A stretch of DNA of 10,974 nt from contig JBFMGU010000324.1 in assembly GCA_040752415.1 (NCBI GenBank), positions 1 to 10,974 of the forward strand. Direction: 5' to 3'. The position numbers were made by a program, and so were the translations under genes. Positions 2 to 6,823 of the stretch are shown here, piece by piece. The stretch comes from Myxococcota bacterium. GTDB taxonomy: Bacteria; Myxococcota; JACRCW01. The notes under the pieces are model-generated. The model saw only the letters and a list, made by a program, of their open reading frames with translations. It was not told where the DNA came from and made no database searches. Position 1 is the stretch's first letter. Each line of letters starts with the position of its first letter.

Positions 2-892
2 GCCGTCACGCCACACCACCGGCGTCCCCACGCACCCGCCGTCCTGCGCGCCCGCCCGGTACACCGTGACCCGACCCAGGCTGCGCGTGCGCCACGGCGC
101 GTGCGTGCTGTCCCGGATCTCGGCAATGACCTCGTAGTCCGCCAGGTCCTCTCCGGCGGAGATGTCCACGTCAAAGCCGTTCTCCACGTCGTCCTCGGAG
201 AGCCCCTGCGCCACCAGCACCGGCTCCTGCTGGCTGAAGGACTTCTTCAGGTACAGGTCGATGATCGCGTCGTCGTCGGGGTCGTCGTCCACCCAGCGGG
301 CACGGAAGCAGGTGTCCACCAGGTCGCCCACGCCGTCTGGCTCCGTCACCAGCATGGCCGGCGGCACGTTCTGGCCCGGCTTGCGCACCCGCACCACGCC
401 GCGGCTGCGCGCAAAGCGCACGTTGCCGCCGCCGCCGTCCGGGTAGTGATCGTCAACGACACCGAGGATGAAGTAGTTCCCCTCCGCCACCGCGCTGACG
501 TCCCACGCGTAGCAGTCATTGTCCGGGTTGCACGCGCCCGCATCCGCGTAGGAGCGACAGTACAGCTCCGTCAGATCCCCGCCCGCGTCGGCGGCGCCGG
601 TGTAGACGGGGCCGGCGTCGGATGGGTCGCAGTCCTCGGGGAGGCCGGCCACCAGCGCCTGGGCCTGCGCCGGCACGTCCGGGTCCGAGGAGAAGCTGAA
701 GGCGATGTTGGCGTCGTCGTCGGGGTCGGCGTCAATCCACCGCAGCTCCGCCACGCCCTCGGCATCCATGATCTGCGCCGGGCCGGGCCGGTCAATGTTG
801 AGGAAGGGAACCCCCGCGCCGCCATGCGCCCAGGCCCCCGCGCCCCCCAGGGTCCCCAGCACCAACGCCAACGCAACACTGTGCTTCTTCAC
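2..892 (-). CDS. Secreted hypothetical protein with two acidic beta-sandwich-like repeats; 3' end lies beyond the window (>297 aa)
   Basis: Translated by hand (absent from the ORF track because it has no stop in the window). GTG at 892 gives MKKHSVALALVLGTLGGAGAWA|HGGAGVPFLNIDRPG..., a Sec signal peptide with an AWA cleavage site. The frame stays open to the edge with high GC3. Internal repeat: LRWIDADPDDDANIAF vs ARWVDDDPDDDAIIDL. Confidence 0.88.
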   Translation of the reverse strand, partial: MKKHSVALALVLGTLGGAGAWAHGGAGVPFLNIDRPGPAQIMDAEGVAELRWIDADPDDDANIAFSFSSDPDVPAQAQALVAGLPEDCDPSDAGPVYTGAADAGGDLTELYCRSYADAGACNPDNDCYAWDVSAVAEGNYFILGVVDDHYPDGGGGNVRFARSRGVVRVRKPGQNVPPAMLVTEPDGVGDLVDTCFRARWVDDDPDDDAIIDLYLKKSFSQQEPVLVAQGLSEDDVENGFDVDISAGEDLADYEVIAEIRDSTHAPWRTRSLGRVTVYRAGAQDGGCVGTPVVWRDG

Positions 893-900
893 GGGGCGGG

Positions 901-909
901 AACCTAGCA
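901..909 (-). promoter_or_regulatory. Possible extended -10 element (TGCTAGGTT) for a leaderless transcript of the 892 gene
   Basis: TGnTAnnnT lies 8 nt upstream of the GTG start, and no Shine-Dalgarno sequence is present there. Confidence 0.3.
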
Positions 910-933
910 GCAGCCCGGCGCGCAAACCCGAGG

Positions 934-1101
934 TCAGCGGGCGACGGGAGGAGCGGGCTTGGGAGGTGGTTGGCTTGGCGTATTGGCGGCGGCCTTGCGC
1001 GCACGCACGTACGCCGCGCCGACCATCACCGGCCCCACCAGGGACAAGGCAAGCTGGAGCGCTTCATGGTGCTGCGTCTGCGCGGGTTCAAACGTGGCCA
1101 T
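934..1101 (-). CDS. Candidate 55-aa single-pass membrane protein
   Basis: MATFEPAQTQHHEALQLALSLVGPVMVGAAYVRARKAAANTPSQPPPKPAPPVAR*: a hydrophobic segment, then RARK, then a Pro-rich tail. 42 of 55 codons end in G/C. RBS is weak. Confidence 0.4.
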   Translation of the reverse strand: MATFEPAQTQHHEALQLALSLVGPVMVGAAYVRARKAAANTPSQPPPKPAPPVAR

Positions 1102-1256
1102 GGTGCCGGCGGCCTACCATGGTGCTCCGGGCGTGTCATCCCGGATGTTCGCGCCTCCGTCAGCGTGCGGAGGGCTACTGACAACGCGGGCGTGCTTCGC
1201 CATGGTGCGCCCCGGCGTGGGCTAGGCTCGCGGCCCCCTCACGCGGGAGACCTTCC

Positions 1257-1883
1257 ATGCAACGACGATTGGCAGCGGCGGTGGCCTTTGTTTGCGGCAC
1301 GGTGCTGACGTGCACCGCGGGCCCGCCGTTCCCCTTCATGGCCGACGCGGGCCACGGCGGCGTCGACGCGGCCACCCCGGATCCCGGCCCGGAGCCCATC
1401 TACGACGGCGACGCGCAGGACGAGGTGTGGCGCGCTTTCGTCGACGCCAAGGGCCGCACCACCGACGACGCCACCGAGGGCAGCACCTTCCAGGTCCCCA
1501 CCGAGGGCCAGACGCTCACCCCCGCCACGCCGGTGACGTTCGTGTGGAACACTCCGCTCGCCTCGGCATTGCCTGCCACCGGCCCCGCCGTTCCGCTGCT
1601 GCGCGGCCCCGCCGGCCTGGGGGTCTTCTCGGTGGCGCACGCGCACGGCCCGGAGCTCACCGGGGACGCCAGCTGGCTCATCTTCCACATCCCCGGCCGT
1701 GACGACTTCACCGTGCTCACCACCAACGGCAGCTGGACGCCGGAGGCGGACGCGTGGGCCGCGCTGACGGCGCAGAGTGACGTCGAGATCACGGCGGAGA
1801 TCTACACCGCGTACTTCGAGCGCAACCGCATCACCGACGGTCCGTACAAGGCTCCGGGGGTGCGTCGCTTCCGGATCCAGTGA
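1257..1883 (+). CDS. Hypothetical exported protein/lipoprotein (208 aa) with an internal AHAHG motif
   Basis: GGGAGA SD at 1245-1250, ATG at 1257. Signal peptide MQRRLAAAVAFVCGTVLTC with a lipobox-like Cys, followed by a DAG linker. High GC3. Its stop overlaps the next start (TGATG). Confidence 0.88.
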   Translation: MQRRLAAAVAFVCGTVLTCTAGPPFPFMADAGHGGVDAATPDPGPEPIYDGDAQDEVWRAFVDAKGRTTDDATEGSTFQVPTEGQTLTPATPVTFVWNTPLASALPATGPAVPLLRGPAGLGVFSVAHAHGPELTGDASWLIFHIPGRDDFTVLTTNGSWTPEADAWAALTAQSDVEITAEIYTAYFERNRITDGPYKAPGVRRFRIQ

Positions 1884-3094
1884 TGACGCGCGGCTGGCAG
1901 CTTGCTCCGCTCCTGGCGCTGGCGGCGTGCGCTCCCACCACGACGGAGACGGCCGACGCCGGCGTGACGATCAGCTTCAGCCTCACCGAGCATTGGCCTG
2001 CGCCCACGGACTGGGACGGCTTTGGCGCGGGGATGCTGGTCACCACCAACAACTCCGACGACACCCTCACCTTCCTCTCCCTGGAGGACCAGGCCGAGCT
2101 CTTCGAGGCGCCCGTGGGCTTCCTGCCGCCCGAGACGGAGGGACCGCACCACGTCGCCTGCGACGAGGGCTGCGAGCACCTGTTCATCCCCATCAGCAAC
2201 TACGTGCCCGGCACCGGCAGCGGACCCCACGGCTCCCACGGCACCGGCAACGCGCGCGGACGGCTGCTGAAGGTGGATGCCCGCACGCTGTTGCCGCTGG
2301 ATTCCGTGGTGGTGGACCGCAGCCCCGGCGACATCCTGCTGGCCCACGACGGGAAGACGCTGTTTGTCTCCCACTACGACCTCGTGAAGGTGCAGGAGGT
2401 GCTCTCGCGGGGCGGGAGCCTGGCGGAGATGGCCAGCACGGTGGCGATTGTCGACGGGGAGACCATGGAGAAGCAGCCGCTGCTCCCGGTGTGTGCCGGC
2501 GGGCATGGCATGGTGCAGAGCCAGGACGGCAACACCCTTTACGTGGCCTGCGCGCTGGCGGACCAGGTTGGCGTGGTGGATCTCGCGAGCACGCCGCCCG
2601 TCGTCACCACGGTGGACGTGGGGGAGAGCCCCATCACCGGCCCCGACGCCACGCGCCATGAGCCCTACGCGCTGAGCATCCATCCTGTCGACGGGAAGTT
2701 GTGGGTGAGCTGCCTGAAGAGCCAGAGCCTGCGCATCTACGACCCCACCACCGGCACCTGGACCGCCGGCCCCACGTTCGACGCCAGCCCCATGTTCGGC
2801 TTCTTCAACAACGACGGCACGCGCTTCATGGTGCCCATCCGGGAGAGCGCGAGCGTGGCCCTCGTCGACACCACCACGCTGGAGCTGGCGCGCCCCATCC
2901 TCACCATGGGCCCGGAGACCTGCGAGAACGCACACGCCCTGGAGCCCTCCCCCGACGGGACCCACACGTTCCTGGTCTGCGAAGGCGATCACCGGGGCCC
3001 GGGCACGGTGGTCACGCTGGCCACGGCGGTGCTGGCGGTGGTGCGCGCCACGCCGGTGGGCGTCTACCCCGACGCCGTGAAGGTGGTCCGATGA
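1883..3094 (+). CDS. YncE/YVTN-like (probably seven-bladed) beta-propeller lipoprotein, His-rich
   Basis: Lipobox LAAC. Blade-like repeats: VTTNNSDDTLTFL, SPGDILLAHDGKTLFVS, GHGMVQSQDGNTLYVAC...DQVGVVD, AHALEPSPDGTHTFLVC, TPVGVYPDAV. Start is ATG 1883 (or GTG 1880), coupled to the upstream stop. Confidence 0.92.
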   Translation: MTRGWQLAPLLALAACAPTTTETADAGVTISFSLTEHWPAPTDWDGFGAGMLVTTNNSDDTLTFLSLEDQAELFEAPVGFLPPETEGPHHVACDEGCEHLFIPISNYVPGTGSGPHGSHGTGNARGRLLKVDARTLLPLDSVVVDRSPGDILLAHDGKTLFVSHYDLVKVQEVLSRGGSLAEMASTVAIVDGETMEKQPLLPVCAGGHGMVQSQDGNTLYVACALADQVGVVDLASTPPVVTTVDVGESPITGPDATRHEPYALSIHPVDGKLWVSCLKSQSLRIYDPTTGTWTAGPTFDASPMFGFFNNDGTRFMVPIRESASVALVDTTTLELARPILTMGPETCENAHALEPSPDGTHTFLVCEGDHRGPGTVVTLATAVLAVVRATPVGVYPDAVKVVR

Positions 3095-3819
3095 TGCGCG
3101 TCCTGGTTGCCACGCTGGTGCTGTTGGCCGGCGCCGGCATGAGTTGTGACGTCCCCGGCCCCTACCCTCGTCAGGTCACGGCGGTGGAGTACGGACGGGA
3201 GCTGTTCAACACCACGGCGCTCAGCAGCAGTCGGTTCAATGCGTTCTCGTGCGCCACCTGTCACGCCACGTCGTCGGAGGGACCGACGATGATTGCCGGT
3301 CGCAGTCTGGAGGGCGTGACCCAACGGACACGCTGGTTTGGCGGCATGGAGCGCGACCTGCTCTCCGCGGTGAACTTCTGCCTGGTGTACTTCATGCGCG
3401 GGGAGAGACTGGGCCGTGACGACGAGCGGGGGAAGGCCCTGTACGAATACCTGGCCAGCATCTCCCCGGGCCGGCCGCCCGACGGGCTGCGCTGGCGTCC
3501 CATGACGGTGGTGGGGAACGTTTCGGACGTGCCGAGGGGGGACCCGGGGCGGGGCGCGGTGGTGTACGCGGAGGCGTGCCAGTCCTGCCACGGCGCAATC
3601 CACGACGGAGCGGGCCGCCTCACCGAGCTGGCGCCGGTGCTGCCGGAAGTGCGCTCCGAGTACGACGCGCTGTTTCCTGGCGTGAGCCACGCGCTGGTGT
3701 TCGTGGAAAAGGTGCGCCACGGGCAGTTCTACGGCGTGGGAGGCAACATGCCGTTCTTTGCGCGGGAGACGCTTTCCGACGAGGACCTGGGCGCGCTGCT
3801 GACCTTCCTGGGGCTGTGA
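3091..3819 (+). CDS. Diheme c-type cytochrome lipoprotein, TsdA/SoxA-like architecture (242 aa)
   Basis: Two CxxCH motifs: CATCH (3250-3264) and CQSCH (3577-3591). Candidate distal ligands: Cys in AVNFCLVYFMRG and Met in GNMP. Signal peptide ends in GMSC. ATGA overlap with the propeller stop, so the real start is 3091, not 2701. Confidence 0.9.
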   Translation: MMRVLVATLVLLAGAGMSCDVPGPYPRQVTAVEYGRELFNTTALSSSRFNAFSCATCHATSSEGPTMIAGRSLEGVTQRTRWFGGMERDLLSAVNFCLVYFMRGERLGRDDERGKALYEYLASISPGRPPDGLRWRPMTVVGNVSDVPRGDPGRGAVVYAEACQSCHGAIHDGAGRLTELAPVLPEVRSEYDALFPGVSHALVFVEKVRHGQFYGVGGNMPFFARETLSDEDLGALLTFLGL

Positions 3820-3948
3820 AGCACGGATCCGTCGCAGAAAACGCTTGTGGACAGCGCCGCGGAAACATTATGAGGCCGCCTCCCGTGCGCGGGCCCGCGC
3901 GGTTCCGTCGACGGGGGATCACCTTTTTCCCAACAACGAGGAATGACA

Positions 3949-4311
3949 ATGGCGTCCAAGAAGGCAAGCAAGGCGGCCAAGGGCGGCAAGAGCGGCAAGG
4001 GCGGCAAGGCGCGCACCAAGAGCCAGGTGCTCACGGACCTCGCCACCGCCACCGGCCTGAGCCGCAAGCAGGTGGCCAGCGTGTTCGATAACCTGGCCAG
4101 CATCATCAAGCAGGACCTCTCCGGCCGCGGCGGCCCGGGCATCTTCACGCTGCCGGGTCTGCTCAAGCTGCGCCTGGTCCGCAAGCCCGCGGTTCCGGCG
4201 CGCAAGGGCATCAACCCCTTCACCAAGGAGCCCACGACGTTCAAGGCCAAGCCGGCCCGCAACGTGGTGAAGGCCTCCGCGCTGAAGGCGCTGAAGGACA
4301 TGGTGGCCTGA
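3949..4311 (+). CDS. HU/IHF-family DNA-binding protein, long type with a Lys-rich N-terminal extension (120 aa)
   Basis: TKSQVLTDLATATGLSRKQV, FTLPGLLKL and ARKGINPFTKE...KAKPARNVVK match the HU fold and its intercalating-Pro arm. SD GAGGA at 3938-3942 favours ATG 3949. Confidence 0.95.
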   Translation: MASKKASKAAKGGKSGKGGKARTKSQVLTDLATATGLSRKQVASVFDNLASIIKQDLSGRGGPGIFTLPGLLKLRLVRKPAVPARKGINPFTKEPTTFKAKPARNVVKASALKALKDMVA

Positions 4312-4327
4312 AAAGGTGACGCCATGA

Positions 4328-4370
4328 CGGGGTGCCGAGCGCGTCCAACACCTGGACCGCTCGCGCCCCG
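4328..4370 (+). terminator. GC-rich hairpin after the HU gene (possible terminator or stabiliser)
   Basis: CGGGGTG/CGCCCCG, CGAGCG/CGCTCG and GTCCA/TGGAC pair around an ACACC loop, 17 nt after the stop. No U-tract follows. Confidence 0.5.
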
Positions 4371-4543
4371 GCCTCCGTCCTCGGCGGTGCGCATCACGCT
4401 ACGCACTGCCACCGCGCCGACGCGCCACCAATCTTGCTGGGCGCGACGCGCTTGCTTCCCACCCCATCATTCTGCTTTGGCTTGGCGCCCATTTGCCGCC
4501 CGGGTCTGAAACTCCGCGTCCCGCCGGTGTTGGAGTCCACGCC

Positions 4544-6823
4544 ATGGTGTCCGTTGATACGTCCTCTCCGCTCTCCCGCACGCCCGAGCTTGAGCCGCTG
4601 GGCGCGCGCATTGTCCGCGCCGCGCTGCAGCGGGTGACTGTCGGCGCGCGCGCGGAGGCCATCCCGCTGGTGCAGCCGGGCGCCGGGTACGTCAGCGTCA
4701 AGGACGCGCTGCTGGTGTGGCTGCGCATCCCCGACGCCACGCTGCTGGACCTGGGCACGCTGGTGCAGGGCACGCACGGACAGCGGCTCATGGCGTTGCG
4801 CTACATCCTGGCCAACCAGGAGAGCTGGCACGCGCGCTTTGCGTGGAAGGCACCGCTGCAGGCCCTCCCGCTCGACGGGGATGCGCACGTGGCGCGCGTG
4901 GAGGAGCTCTTTGGCACCGTCAAGGCGCTGCGCGCGGAGCTGCTCTCCGACGTGGACGCGCACGCCGGCCTGGTGAGCGAGTTCCTGGGCGGCAACGTGG
5001 TCTCGTGTCTCACCGACGGGCTGGACAGCCCGGAGACCATGCGCTTCCTGCTGGTGATGAACGAGCGGGAGGAGCTCCGCACGCAGGTGCGCGCCATGGT
5101 GCGGGCCCGCGCGGGCGAGATGTTGCGCAAGGACCCGGTGGCGCTGGACCTGTTGTACCTGGCCACGGTGGACCTGCGGACCTACCCCGCCACGACGGTG
5201 AGCGCGGGCAGGCTCAAGTACGTCATCGTGGCGGACAAGGGGGAGATGGGCGTGCGCGCCGTGCGTGAGGCGGTGGCGCTGGGGAAGATTCCCGTGGTGT
5301 GCCACAGCCTGCAGGACGACGAGAACGCCCTGCAGGTCCGCCTGGCGCACAAGCACAAGGGCATCACGGTGGGCCTCAAGGGCACGTTCCGTGAGACGTA
5401 CGCCAACTTCGTCCAGATTGCCGACCGGGTCATCAAGACCTTCCAGCAGCGCTTTGGTGACCACTGGCGCACCGAGCTGGCGCAGGCGGCCATCTACCCC
5501 GGCTACGGCCCGCTGGCCGAGAACGCCTCCGCCATCCGCCACTTCCGCAACCACGGGCTCGTGTTCGTGGGTCCCATGCAGGATGTCGTCGAGAACGCGG
5601 GCGACAAGCGCACCTTCCGCTCCATCGTCCAGCAACTGGACCCCGGCGCGGTGACGCCGGGCATCACGCTCCAGTCCAGCAATCCCGCCGAGATCCTCCA
5701 GCGCATCGAGGACGCGCACCGCAACGGCGTGTTCGGCTTCCCCGGTCGACTCAAGGCCGCCAACGGCGGCGGCGGACGCGGCCAGGCCATTGTCCCGTCC
5801 GTCGAGGCGCTGCCCGCGGCAATCACCAAGGTGCTGGGCGAGATCAAGACCAATGGCTGGGATGACGGCGTCATGTTCGAGCAGAACATCCCGGAGACGG
5901 TGCACCTGGAGGTGCAGGTACTGCGCGACCGCTACGGGAACACGCGGCACTTCTCCATGCGTGACTGCACCGAGCAGCGCGCCAGCCAGAAGATCCAGGA
6001 GGAGGCGCCACCGGCGCTCTTGCGCGACAACCCCGCGCTGCAGCAGCGCATCCAGGAGCTGGCGGTGGGGATTGCCGACAAGGTGGGCTACGTGGGCGCG
6101 GGCACCATCGAGCTCATGTACAAGGACGGGAAGGTCTACTTCCTGGAGATGAACACGCGCATCCAGGTGGAGCACCCGGTGACGGAGGAGGTGCACGCCA
6201 TCCGTCGGGGAGACAAGCTGGAGCCGCTGAACCTGGTGCAGTGGCAGATGCGCATTGCCAACGGTGAGCCCATCGACTTCGCGCAGGATCAGCTGGTGCG
6301 CACGCACGTGGGCCGCGAGTTCCGCATCAACGCGGAGAGCTGGAAGGCGGACCTCAAGGACAGCCGCGACGGCGGCCTGGGCCTGTTCCTCCCCAACGCC
6401 GGCATCTTCGACGTCATCAAGCTCCCCAAGCCCACCGCGGTGCGCAAGGCGCTGGAGAAGCAGGGCGTGCGCGGCATCAAGGACCTCAAGGTCCGTTTTG
6501 ATTGCGGCTTCGAGCGCGGCGACACGCTGGTCAACAAGGACCCCACCTTCGGCAAGCTGATCATCTCGGTGGCCGCCGACGCGGATGCCTACGAGCTGCT
6601 CCGGCTCGCGTGCGTCGAGGTGCTGGAGGAGACGCACATCGAGGGGCGGCAGGTGCGTCCGGATGGCTCGGTGATCGACGACACCGAGTTCCAGACCAAC
6701 ATCCAGGACCACATCCGCATCCTGAAGAGCCCGCTGTTCAAGCAGCACAGCCAGAGCAAGGCCCCCACCCGTCACGTGAACTGGGTGGTGGCCGCGCTCC
6801 GCGCCAACGGCAAGGCCCGCTGA
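4544..6823 (+). CDS. Biotin carboxylase-family ATP-grasp enzyme with a ~223-aa N-terminal extension (759 aa)
   Basis: Motifs: VADKGEMGVRAVR, YPGYGPLAENA, LKAANGGGGRG, HLEVQVLRD, RDCTEQRASQKIQEEAP, YVGAGTIE, FLEMNTRIQVEHPVTE, FRINAE, VRFDCG. GGAG SD at 4532-4535 before ATG 4544. No biotinyl (AMKM) domain. Confidence 0.92.
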   Translation: MVSVDTSSPLSRTPELEPLGARIVRAALQRVTVGARAEAIPLVQPGAGYVSVKDALLVWLRIPDATLLDLGTLVQGTHGQRLMALRYILANQESWHARFAWKAPLQALPLDGDAHVARVEELFGTVKALRAELLSDVDAHAGLVSEFLGGNVVSCLTDGLDSPETMRFLLVMNEREELRTQVRAMVRARAGEMLRKDPVALDLLYLATVDLRTYPATTVSAGRLKYVIVADKGEMGVRAVREAVALGKIPVVCHSLQDDENALQVRLAHKHKGITVGLKGTFRETYANFVQIADRVIKTFQQRFGDHWRTELAQAAIYPGYGPLAENASAIRHFRNHGLVFVGPMQDVVENAGDKRTFRSIVQQLDPGAVTPGITLQSSNPAEILQRIEDAHRNGVFGFPGRLKAANGGGGRGQAIVPSVEALPAAITKVLGEIKTNGWDDGVMFEQNIPETVHLEVQVLRDRYGNTRHFSMRDCTEQRASQKIQEEAPPALLRDNPALQQRIQELAVGIADKVGYVGAGTIELMYKDGKVYFLEMNTRIQVEHPVTEEVHAIRRGDKLEPLNLVQWQMRIANGEPIDFAQDQLVRTHVGREFRINAESWKADLKDSRDGGLGLFLPNAGIFDVIKLPKPTAVRKALEKQGVRGIKDLKVRFDCGFERGDTLVNKDPTFGKLIISVAADADAYELLRLACVEVLEETHIEGRQVRPDGSVIDDTEFQTNIQDHIRILKSPLFKQHSQSKAPTRHVNWVVAALRANGKAR

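Follow-up and report, generated by a model that had tools for sequence, protein, structure and literature searches.

A conserved three-gene operon of Myxococcota combines a lipoprotein-like beta-propeller, a diheme cytochrome and a protein of an unnamed family in a candidate redox module

We analyzed a stretch of 10,974 nucleotides from a Myxococcota bacterium (assembly GCA_040752415.1, contig JBFMGU010000324.1, G+C content of about 70%), referred to below as the window, and concentrated on three consecutive genes, A, B, and C. A first-pass annotation, made from the DNA letters without database searches, had proposed these genes as an undescribed surface metallo-redox system. Judged by gene order and sequence comparison, A-B-C is a conserved, translationally coupled operon, and within the genome collection that we searched the module has so far been found in Myxococcota alone. 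Gene B encodes a predicted seven-bladed propeller of the YVTN type, gene C a lipoprotein-like diheme c-type cytochrome, and gene A a lipoprotein-like protein whose relatives carry no family name. The reading that we favor, at about an even chance, is that the trio constitutes a lipid-anchored extracytoplasmic redox metalloenzyme, in which the propeller would hold the metal site, C would act as an electron wire, and A would be an accessory subunit or metal loader. The coordinates of the genes, of their conserved motifs, and of the neighboring genes are listed in Table 1.

Results

A conserved and translationally coupled trio

The conservation of the trio was examined in 75 loci encoding a relative of C, drawn from a genome collection scanned at one genome per species. 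All of these come from Myxococcota records, except one record titled Comamonas that looks myxobacterial. This record (BNCN01000005.1, titled Comamonas sp. KCTC 72670; L002) has a myxobacterial gene order, its organism name looks wrong, and the repeat protein encoded beside its trio (the BNR protein described below) shares 90% identity with its counterpart from Myxococcus sp. Y35 (L001).

Gene B lies directly upstream of C in all 66 loci with at least 1250 upstream bases. Gene A was detected by tblastn in 58 of the 64 loci with room for it, and by a profile hidden Markov model (HMM) in 65 of the 75; in eight of the ten loci without A, a contig end cuts into B or C or falls shortly before them. 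In two deep-branching loci from metagenome-assembled genomes, the order is B-C-A, with A downstream of C (L061, 6988-8178; L070, 7652-8176), and a gap of 0.7-1.9 kb lies between A and B in two genomes of Cystobacter fuscus (L045, 4312-5013; L062, 2992-3774). The four genes that flank the trio in the window, encoding a secreted protein (2-925, minus strand), an HU-like protein, an ATP-grasp protein, and a MopE-repeat protein, were used as tblastn queries against the other loci and yielded, at a threshold of E 1e-3, a single weak match (MopE, L048). Since these flanking genes do not accompany the trio in other loci, the trio itself is the unit of conservation. The first-pass annotation had suggested looking for a conserved triplet across Myxococcota, and named a lack of synteny among homologues as evidence against its proposal; the gene order in the 75 loci bears out the former (B-C in 66/66, A in 65/75) and rules out the latter.

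All three genes are open reading frames without internal stops, with a G+C content at third codon positions of 0.91 in A, 0.94 in B, and 0.87 in C. The two stop/start overlaps that had been noted from the window, TGATG at 1881-1885 and ATGA at 3091-3094, are indeed present in its sequence, and similar junctions recur across the loci. The B stop and C start overlap as NTGA in 70 of 70 loci (ATGA in 55, GTGA in 15, and CTGA in none), and the A stop and B start do so in 58 of 59. A, G, or T before TGA is not rare, but base composition would account neither for ATGA being in excess at the B/C junction nor for the lack of CTGA there. At the A/B junction of the window, the stop codon of A overlaps an in-frame GTG at 1880 by four bases, or the ATG at 1883-1885 by one base. 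Because of the NTGA pattern across loci, translation of B may start in the window at GTG 1880, giving a GTGA overlap, instead of at the ATG chosen in the first-pass annotation.

That the three genes are chance neighbors with unrelated functions was already disfavored, and it is very improbable in view of the unbroken adjacency of B and C, the overlaps in 70/70 and 58/59 loci, the persistence of the trio after rearrangement, and the lack of conservation of its flanks.

Each of the three proteins was found to carry a signal peptide ending in a lipobox cysteine (consensus [LVI][ASTVI][GAS]C), as had been claimed; lipidation itself is a prediction. The box of B is canonical, and those of A and C (AGMSC, Cys19, in the latter) are off-consensus in the window, with canonical boxes in their relatives (e.g., LATSAC and LLAAGC) and an invariant cysteine. 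A scan of positions 880-4400 revealed no promoter-like site. The sole terminator-like hairpin in this interval lies at 3901-3929 on the plus strand, 80 bases past the stop of C, and this count of one is not above that in shuffled sequence (mean 1.7).

Table 1 Features of the window, with the trio and its motifs first and the flanking genes last
Feature	Position	Strand	Details
Gene A	1257..1883	+	Open reading frame without internal stops, 208 aa
Cys19 of A, putative lipid-attachment cysteine	1311..1313	+	TVLTC, non-canonical in the window; Cys invariant in 34/34 relatives
A-x-A-H motif of A (A127, H128, A129, H130)	1635..1646	+	Alignments of 26 and 34 sequences
A/B junction, GTGATG	1880..1885	+	Stop TGA of A at 1881-1883; window sequence
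Gene B	1880..3094	+	Open reading frame without internal stops, 404 aa from GTG 1880, 403 aa from ATG 1883
Cys17 of B, canonical lipobox ALAAC	1928..1930	+	Cys in 65/67 sequences
EGPHH of B (E87, H90, H91), start of inner strand	2138..2152	+	E87 66/67, H90 66/67, H91 67/67
GSGPHGSHG loop of B (H117, H120)	2216..2242	+	H117 67/67, H120 65/67
SHYD of B (H165-Y-D167)	2372..2380	+	H165 67/67, D167 67/67
C205-A-G-G-H209-G of B	2492..2509	+	C205 67/67, H209 66/67, C224 67/67
C348-E-N-A-H352-A of B	2921..2938	+	C348, H352, C367, E368 all 67/67
B/C junction, ATGA	3091..3094	+	ATG of C (3091-3093) overlaps TGA of B (3092-3094); 4 bases
Gene C	3091..3819	+	Open reading frame without internal stops, 242 aa
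Heme-binding motif 1 of C, CATCH (C54-H58)	3250..3264	+	C57, H58 70/70; C54 69/70
C97-L-V-Y-F-M102 of C, candidate sixth ligands of heme 1	3379..3396	+	C97, M102 70/70
Heme-binding motif 2 of C, CQSCH (C163-H167)	3577..3591	+	C163, C166, H167 70/70
Met220 of C (GGNMPF), inside the Cytochrome_CBB3 match	3748..3750	+	M220 70/70
Secreted protein, cut by the window end	2..925	-	Divergently transcribed; no family match
HU/IHF-type DNA-binding protein	3943..4311	+	PF00216, 51 bits; ~24-residue Lys/Ala/Gly-rich N-terminal tail
ATP-grasp protein, 776 aa	4493..6823	+	Biotin_carb_N, CPSase_L_D2
MopE-motif protein, 1373 aa	6834..10955	-	PF11617, 214 bits, 14 matched stretches

Gene B encodes a predicted propeller with a focused invariant site

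A word-based search recovered 237 relatives of B, the best of them 51-54% identical, which are either named YncE family protein or nameless. An AlphaFold (AF2) model built on 30 sequences (pLDDT 88.5, pTM 0.87) contains 28 strands arranged in seven four-stranded blades, and on this model B is a 7-bladed beta-propeller of the YVTN type. Foldseek matched the model to 1l0q (an archaeal YVTN protein), cd1 NirS, NirN/NirF, YncE, BtuG lipoproteins, NosZ, and AztD, with NosZ among the best (TMq 0.65), BtuG/BT1954 at 0.60-0.64, and AztD at 0.51.

The conservation of single residues was counted over 67 sequences, namely 66 loci and the window. Present in all 67 are H91, H117, H165, H352, D151, D167, and E368, together with the cysteines C205, C224, C348, and C367; H90, H209, E87, and D398 are kept in 66, and H120 and Y263 in 65. 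Seven histidines of B are thus each retained in 65-67 sequences. An alignment of 30 sequences at about 40% identity has 38 invariant columns, including E87, H90, and H91. The description of B as a His-rich propeller holds for the seven-bladed fold and the seven conserved histidines, and not for overall composition, where histidine is only mildly enriched (14 in total, 3.5%).

According to the DSSP assignment of the model, H90/H91, D151, H209, Y263, (M305)F306, H352, and D398 are the first residues of the innermost blade strands, where they occupy the P-x-G position of the YVTN repeat, and N107, H165/D167, C224, S277, and C367-E-G-D lie at the end of the second strand. Both strand positions line the mouth of the central channel in propellers of the YVTN type, and the blade register would accordingly place the conserved residues of B at its center. 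The GSGPHGSHG segment is a Gly/His-rich insertion inside one blade and forms a lower-confidence loop in the model. Each pair of cysteines brackets a His-bearing strand; because the pairs sit in an exported protein, C205-C224 and C348-C367 are probably disulfides. An invariant polar and histidine-rich site of this kind is what would be expected of a catalytic or cofactor-binding subunit, and to this extent the earlier proposal of a catalytic propeller is supported.

When a profile of B was compared with solved structures, the 1l0q propeller (E = 1.6e-27) and, as the second-best match, the beta subunit of hydrazine synthase (E = 1.1e-15) were recovered, as was NosZ (2iwf, E = 4.8e-5; also 1fwx, 1qni, and 9f8x). 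In the 2iwf alignment, H209 of B falls on the histidine of the NosZ 'NPHG' stretch ('NNPHGC') and H352 on that of 'IHG' ('KGIHGM'). We take these NosZ histidines to be CuZ ligands, which makes the alignment a lead, not a test.

Gene C encodes a diheme cytochrome that could itself be the catalyst

Two CxxCH motifs occur in 69-70 of 70 sequences of C, and a class I domain scores above the Pfam cut-off (Cytochrome_CBB3, 53.3 bits at residues 152-240, cut-off 27), so that C is, by sequence, a lipoprotein-like diheme c-type cytochrome. Met220 is expected from its position to be the Met ligand of heme 2 in the class I domain. The sixth ligand of heme 1 could be Cys97 or Met102, which are equally invariant in the alignment. 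The two heme motifs and the candidate Cys ligand lie where the first-pass annotation had placed them, and Cys97, like Met102, is kept in 70/70 sequences.

We found 506 relatives of C. Their names in NCBI are 'c-type cytochrome' or 'cytochrome C oxidase Cbb3', and many are called 'thiosulfate dehydrogenase' by JGI. The latter name fits a reading in which C, and not B, is the catalyst, namely a miniature diheme enzyme of the TsdA/SoxA or bCCP/MauG type, with B as its substrate binder, scaffold, or target. Sulfur or peroxide chemistry would then take place at heme 1, with Cys97 as a ligand or with an open site; alternatively, heme 1 would oxidatively convert a residue of A or B to a cofactor, comparable to the maturation of methylamine dehydrogenase by MauG.

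Several observations point in this direction. C shares with TsdA/SoxA a diheme build of about 25 kDa, a similar spacing of the CxxCH motifs, and a Cys some 40 residues past the first heme His, the invariant Cys97. The full-length profile of C aligns with TsdA structures from heme 1 to heme 2 (residues 34-165 against 38-171, E = 0.02-0.05), and the Pfam SoxA-TsdA model (PF21342) scores 21.4 bits over residues 35-128, with 6 of 31 relatives matching it at E<=0.01. With bCCP/MauG/MbnH, C has in common two hemes, a C-terminal His/Met domain, and an N-terminal half that opens with the signature preceding the first heme of bCCP/MauG (ELGxxLFxDPxLS...SCxTCH-like). An N-terminal profile of C matched 1eb7 (E = 6.8e-6) and MauG (E of about 5e-4 to 2e-2), and CCP_MauG (PF03150) scores 24.8 bits over residues 31-65, with 28 of 31 members matching. 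Furthermore, non-catalytic propellers accompany heme enzymes in hydrazine synthase and methylamine dehydrogenase (PMC12758564).

All of these family matches, however, fall below the curated cut-offs (27 bits for PF21342, 25.6 for PF03150, and 362.85 for the MbnH model, which scores 17.3), and those to bCCP/MauG always span only about 30-35 residues. Residues 62-146, which carry Cys97, matched nothing as a profile against solved structures but a chance lipase (E = 1), and so show no detectable similarity to TsdA, SoxA, or any other solved structure. With 242 aa, C is about 100 residues shorter than bCCP/MauG (320-370 aa), and 38 invariant columns concentrated on a single face would be superfluous in a propeller that served as a scaffold. 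TsdA, moreover, acts alone or with TsdB, and is not known to act with a propeller. On balance, we consider it somewhat unlikely, at an appreciable chance, that C is the catalyst. An identity of C with TsdA was considered and rejected, as the domain-only N-terminal profile led to bCCP/MauG and the inter-heme stretch matched nothing. By these comparisons, C is a distinct diheme family that has the general build of TsdA and bCCP and is a member of neither.

Gene A belongs to a large family without a name

The product of gene A is a lipoprotein-like protein of 208 aa, modeled as an Ig/FN3-like beta-sandwich (AF2 pLDDT 79.6, pTM 0.70) with a low-confidence flexible loop at residues ~100-130 that ends at the A-x-A-H motif. 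A word-based search returned two relatives, and an exhaustive profile search returned 616 representatives at E<=0.001, of which 420 remain at a threshold of 1e-10 and 75 at one of 1e-30. Among the 150 matches listed, lengths range from 93 to 273 aa, most being ~160-240 aa, and no added domain is present. No match to A was found in Pfam or NCBIfam (both at E<=0.1) or among PDB sequences; Foldseek returned 0 matches to the PDB at E<=0.001 and otherwise generic Ig/FN3 folds only, and the matches in the Atlas are exclusively myxobacterial lipoproteins without a family name. By all these searches, A belongs to a family that has no name.

Across 34 diverse members, the lipobox Cys, D55, P113, A127, A129, H130, and G195 are invariant. 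The AHAHG motif after which the protein was first described lies at residues 127-131 (1635-1649) as claimed, and its A127, A129, and H130 are invariant; its other histidine, H128, varies among H/E/Q/W/R/Y/F/K, leaving A-x-A-H as the real motif. The accompanying claim that A is a metal-loading protein found no support in these comparisons: A has one conserved His, a plain Ig/FN3-like sandwich, and no chaperone family match, and neither family matches nor fold relate it to the copper chaperones NosL, PCuAC, CopC, SCO1, or YcnI. The protein contains two Cys.

Positions 1545-1646 of the window (residues ~97-130) encode a variable Arg-rich loop in front of the invariant A-x-A-His. The motif resembles a signal-peptidase I site that exposes an N-terminal His, with Ala at -3 and -1 and His at +1. 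The segment before it contains at least one R/K in 31 of 34 sequences and P/G at -8 to -4 in 28 of 34, and the would-be hydrophobic core before His130 carries charged residues in 29 of 34, with a mean Kyte-Doolittle value of 0.66. An internal signal-peptidase I site at this position was therefore rejected as unsupported, its core being charged in 29/34 sequences and its topology being wrong after a lipoprotein signal. As a long shot, A-x-A-His may be a processing site that exposes the N-terminal His as a copper 'histidine brace'.

The trio among known propeller-cytochrome systems

The combination of a propeller with a c-type cytochrome is, in our analysis, a design common to cd1 nitrite reductase, NosZ, thiocyanate dehydrogenase, hydrazine synthase, quinohemoprotein amine dehydrogenase, and methanethiol oxidase. 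We compared the trio with these and related systems by model scores and gene content.

NosZ and B are both 7-bladed propellers with seven conserved His, and the blade motifs of B align with His-bearing stretches of NosZ. NosZ is also extracytoplasmic and fed by c-type cytochromes, in which it can be likened to B with C. Unlike NosZ, B lacks a CuA domain and ends with the propeller, and the blades of the two are not collinear; the NosZ model TIGR04244 is weakly matched by 2 of 30 relatives of B, which does not make B a NosZ. For the lactonase-type L-NosZ (clade III), gene clusters without nos accessory genes and close to cytochrome genes have been reported (PMC13477213). B falls far short of the L-NosZ model NF052460 (14.9 bits, cut-off 700), and the best match of its 30 relatives (E = 3.8e-10) is at the level of the repeat.

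Thiocyanate dehydrogenase holds a trinuclear, His-ligated copper center in the channel of a 7-bladed propeller. Its redox partner is reported to be a c-type cytochrome, cytochrome c552 (PMC9456337). The concept of a His-ligated copper propeller with a c-type cytochrome partner is thus like that proposed for B; unlike A-B-C, the enzyme is not a lipoprotein trio. No meaningful sequence match of B to thiocyanate dehydrogenase was found among solved structures, the sole candidate being chain 8q9x (E = 0.37), which we guess to be this enzyme.

In hydrazine synthase, the beta and gamma subunits pair a YVTN 7-bladed propeller with a CCP-like diheme cytochrome, resembling B and C. All 30 B relatives touch the beta-subunit model NF052340, on which B scores 30.3 bits against a cut-off of 560. 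The gamma subunit is not among the best 60 of the 67 chains matched by the C profile, and no alpha-like gene was found in the window. The beta subunit is reported to have no active site (PMC12758564), whereas B has an invariant His site. That the trio might represent hydrazine-synthase homologues from outside anammox bacteria was considered and rejected, since it is of a different family; such homologues are reported in Planctomycetota and Desulfobacterota, Myxococcota not being mentioned (PMC12758564).

The relatives of B are automatically named YncE, and all 30 touch TIGR03866, a propeller associated with PQQ catabolism and found with cytochrome c550 PedF. These matches span single YVTN repeats only, and B stays below each cut-off (YncE 18.5 vs 400, TIGR03866 41.8 vs 287.3, and Pfam YNCE 19.2 vs 27.1). 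Quinohemoprotein amine dehydrogenase, whose QH_beta model TIGR03907 is weakly matched in 5 of 30 B relatives, has a gamma subunit that is small and Cys-rich, and a radical-SAM maturase; the window contains no such genes, and B is not placed in this family. The methanethiol oxidase cluster contains MtoX together with SCO1/SenC and MauG-like genes. Its logic resembles that of the trio, in that a propeller enzyme stands alongside a diheme protein and a putative helper for copper; this helper is an SCO1 protein, which A is not. The window's B was unmatched by MtoX/SBP56 models, and among its relatives NF052453 was matched by 1 of 30 (E of about 1e-3) and PF05694 weakly by 9 of 30.

The statement of the first-pass annotation that the trio fits none of the recognized gene sets agrees with these comparisons, as none of the three proteins attains the curated cut-off of any of these families. 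No published account of the module was found in a literature search, which did not cover subscription journals and supplements.

A proposed lipid-anchored redox enzyme

In the reading that we favor, B would be the catalytic subunit, with a ring of invariant residues on its central top face stiffened by the two probable disulfides. The inner ring would comprise H90, H91, D151, H209, Y263, F306, H352, and D398, flanked by H117, H120, H165, D167, E368, and D370. This site would be a His-ligated metal center, most plausibly of copper and possibly multinuclear, comparable to those in the NosZ and thiocyanate dehydrogenase propellers. C, made in a fixed ratio with B through translational coupling, would shuttle electrons between the c-type cytochrome pool and B by way of heme 2, with a His/Met pair of ligands, and heme 1, with Cys97 or Met102 in the sixth position. 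The flexible Arg-rich loop of A would present the invariant His130 to the acidic top face of B, making A an accessory subunit or a metal-insertion factor. We would guess that the substrate is a small sulfur or nitrogen compound.

Three lines of reasoning lead to this proposal. The strict co-occurrence of the genes and their translational coupling suggest a joint requirement for the three proteins at a constant ratio; given its focused and invariant His/Asp/Tyr site, B is likely to bind a metal or cofactor instead of being a mere scaffold; and since a diheme cytochrome is obligatory, a role in electron transfer is suggested. From these considerations we infer which metal is bound, which way electrons flow, what A does, and that the three proteins would form a physical complex.

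Several points weigh against the proposal. The clustering of the B histidines is inferred rather than measured, and the many invariant Asp/Glu residues of B would also suit Zn, Fe, Mn, or Ca. The likeness of B to NosZ is per blade, its two aligned pieces are not collinear, and it is no stronger than the likeness to the cofactor-free YVTN propellers 1l0q and hydrazine synthase beta. A has a single invariant His and matches no chaperone family, and it was not detected by the profile HMM in two loci despite room for it (L050 and L063). Among 118 neighboring open reading frames of 10 diverse loci, none encodes CopA, Sco, PCuAC, CopC/D, or NosL/D/F/Y. Lastly, as discussed above, C might itself be the catalyst.

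A bolder version of the proposal is that B represents a further lineage of His-ligated, probably multicopper propeller oxidoreductases beside NosZ, L-NosZ, and thiocyanate dehydrogenase, hard-wired to the Cys-bearing C and the His-donating A, and transforming a small compound of sulfur or nitrogen, such as thiocyanate, N2O, hydroxylamine, or a sulfane or thiol, at the envelope of aerobic predatory soil myxobacteria. We regard this version as unlikely.

Neighboring genes and a possible role in metal or cofactor capture

A recurrent neighbor of the trio had escaped the first-pass annotation. In 55 of the 75 loci (e.g., L001, 3438-5102, plus strand), the trio is adjoined by a gene encoding a protein with BNR/Sortilin-Vps10-type repeats and a MYXO-CTERM sorting signal. 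In Myxococcaceae and Archangiaceae the gene is located upstream of A; deeper lineages (L050, L060, L061, L063, L070, and L073) have it downstream of the trio, L057 has it on the opposite strand, and neither the window nor L003 contains it. Its product is a weak match to the F510_1955 glycosylhydrolase model (61 bits, cut-off 175) and may serve the trio as a surface partner or as a fourth, optional component. The Pfam scan of the 118 flanking open reading frames revealed no copper, nos, sox, TonB, or regulator gene shared among the 10 loci.

In L057, A-B-C is immediately preceded, on its own strand, by a Peripla_BP_2/FecCD/ABC_tran importer of the iron-siderophore, heme, or B12 type (2086-4951, plus strand). 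This arrangement would suit a surface capture device, in which the top face of B binds zinc, iron, copper, heme, or a corrinoid in the manner of AztD or BtuG, A helps to hand the cargo over, and C reduces it for uptake. The Foldseek similarity of B to BtuG/BT1954, which are B12-binding surface lipoproteins, and to AztD agrees with such a role, as do the weak matches of 2 of 30 B relatives to the AztD model and the frequent presence of the MYXO-CTERM surface protein beside the trio. Yet a targeted tblastn search found the importer in no other locus of the 75 and not in the window, no TonB-dependent receptor or permease is a conserved neighbor in the scanned loci, the BtuG and AztD matches are at the level of the fold only, and a strictly coupled diheme cytochrome would be unusual for binding proteins. 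We therefore hold a capture function to be improbable, and keep the redox enzyme as the favored reading.

The remaining genes of the window are those that tblastn did not place beside the trio elsewhere. The MopE-motif protein has a lipobox-like N-terminus, a long Ser-rich linker, and a Cys-rich 'putative metal-binding' motif; a copper link by way of this protein was considered and dropped, its gene not being conserved beside the trio. The ATP-grasp protein has an N-terminal extension of ~240 aa. Because all of its NCBIfam scores are far below the cut-offs (e.g., 235 vs 597), it is best described from its sequence as a divergent carboxylase-like enzyme related to biotin carboxylases. The secreted protein encoded at 2-925 contains acidic DPDDD repeats, and its signal peptide, read by eye, appears to end between GAGAWA and HGG, which would leave an N-terminal His.

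Discussion

Some of the key reactions in nitrogen and sulfur cycling, among them the turnover of nitrite, N2O, thiocyanate, hydrazine, and methanethiol, are carried out by enzymes that combine a propeller with a cytochrome. The trio described here is a compact, conserved three-gene module of this design, claimed by none of the curated families that we tested and by no paper that we found. It is present in many cultivated and genetically tractable myxobacteria, including Myxococcus, Corallococcus, Archangium, Cystobacter, Hyalangium, and Pyxidicoccus, and its function can therefore be tested directly by knock-out and biochemistry. If B proves to be a true new metal-cluster enzyme, it would add a catalyst to those known, and possibly an unrecognized route by which soils consume or release a trace gas or sulfur compound. 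If it does not, the module would still define three protein families, of which that of A, with its 616 representatives, is nameless.

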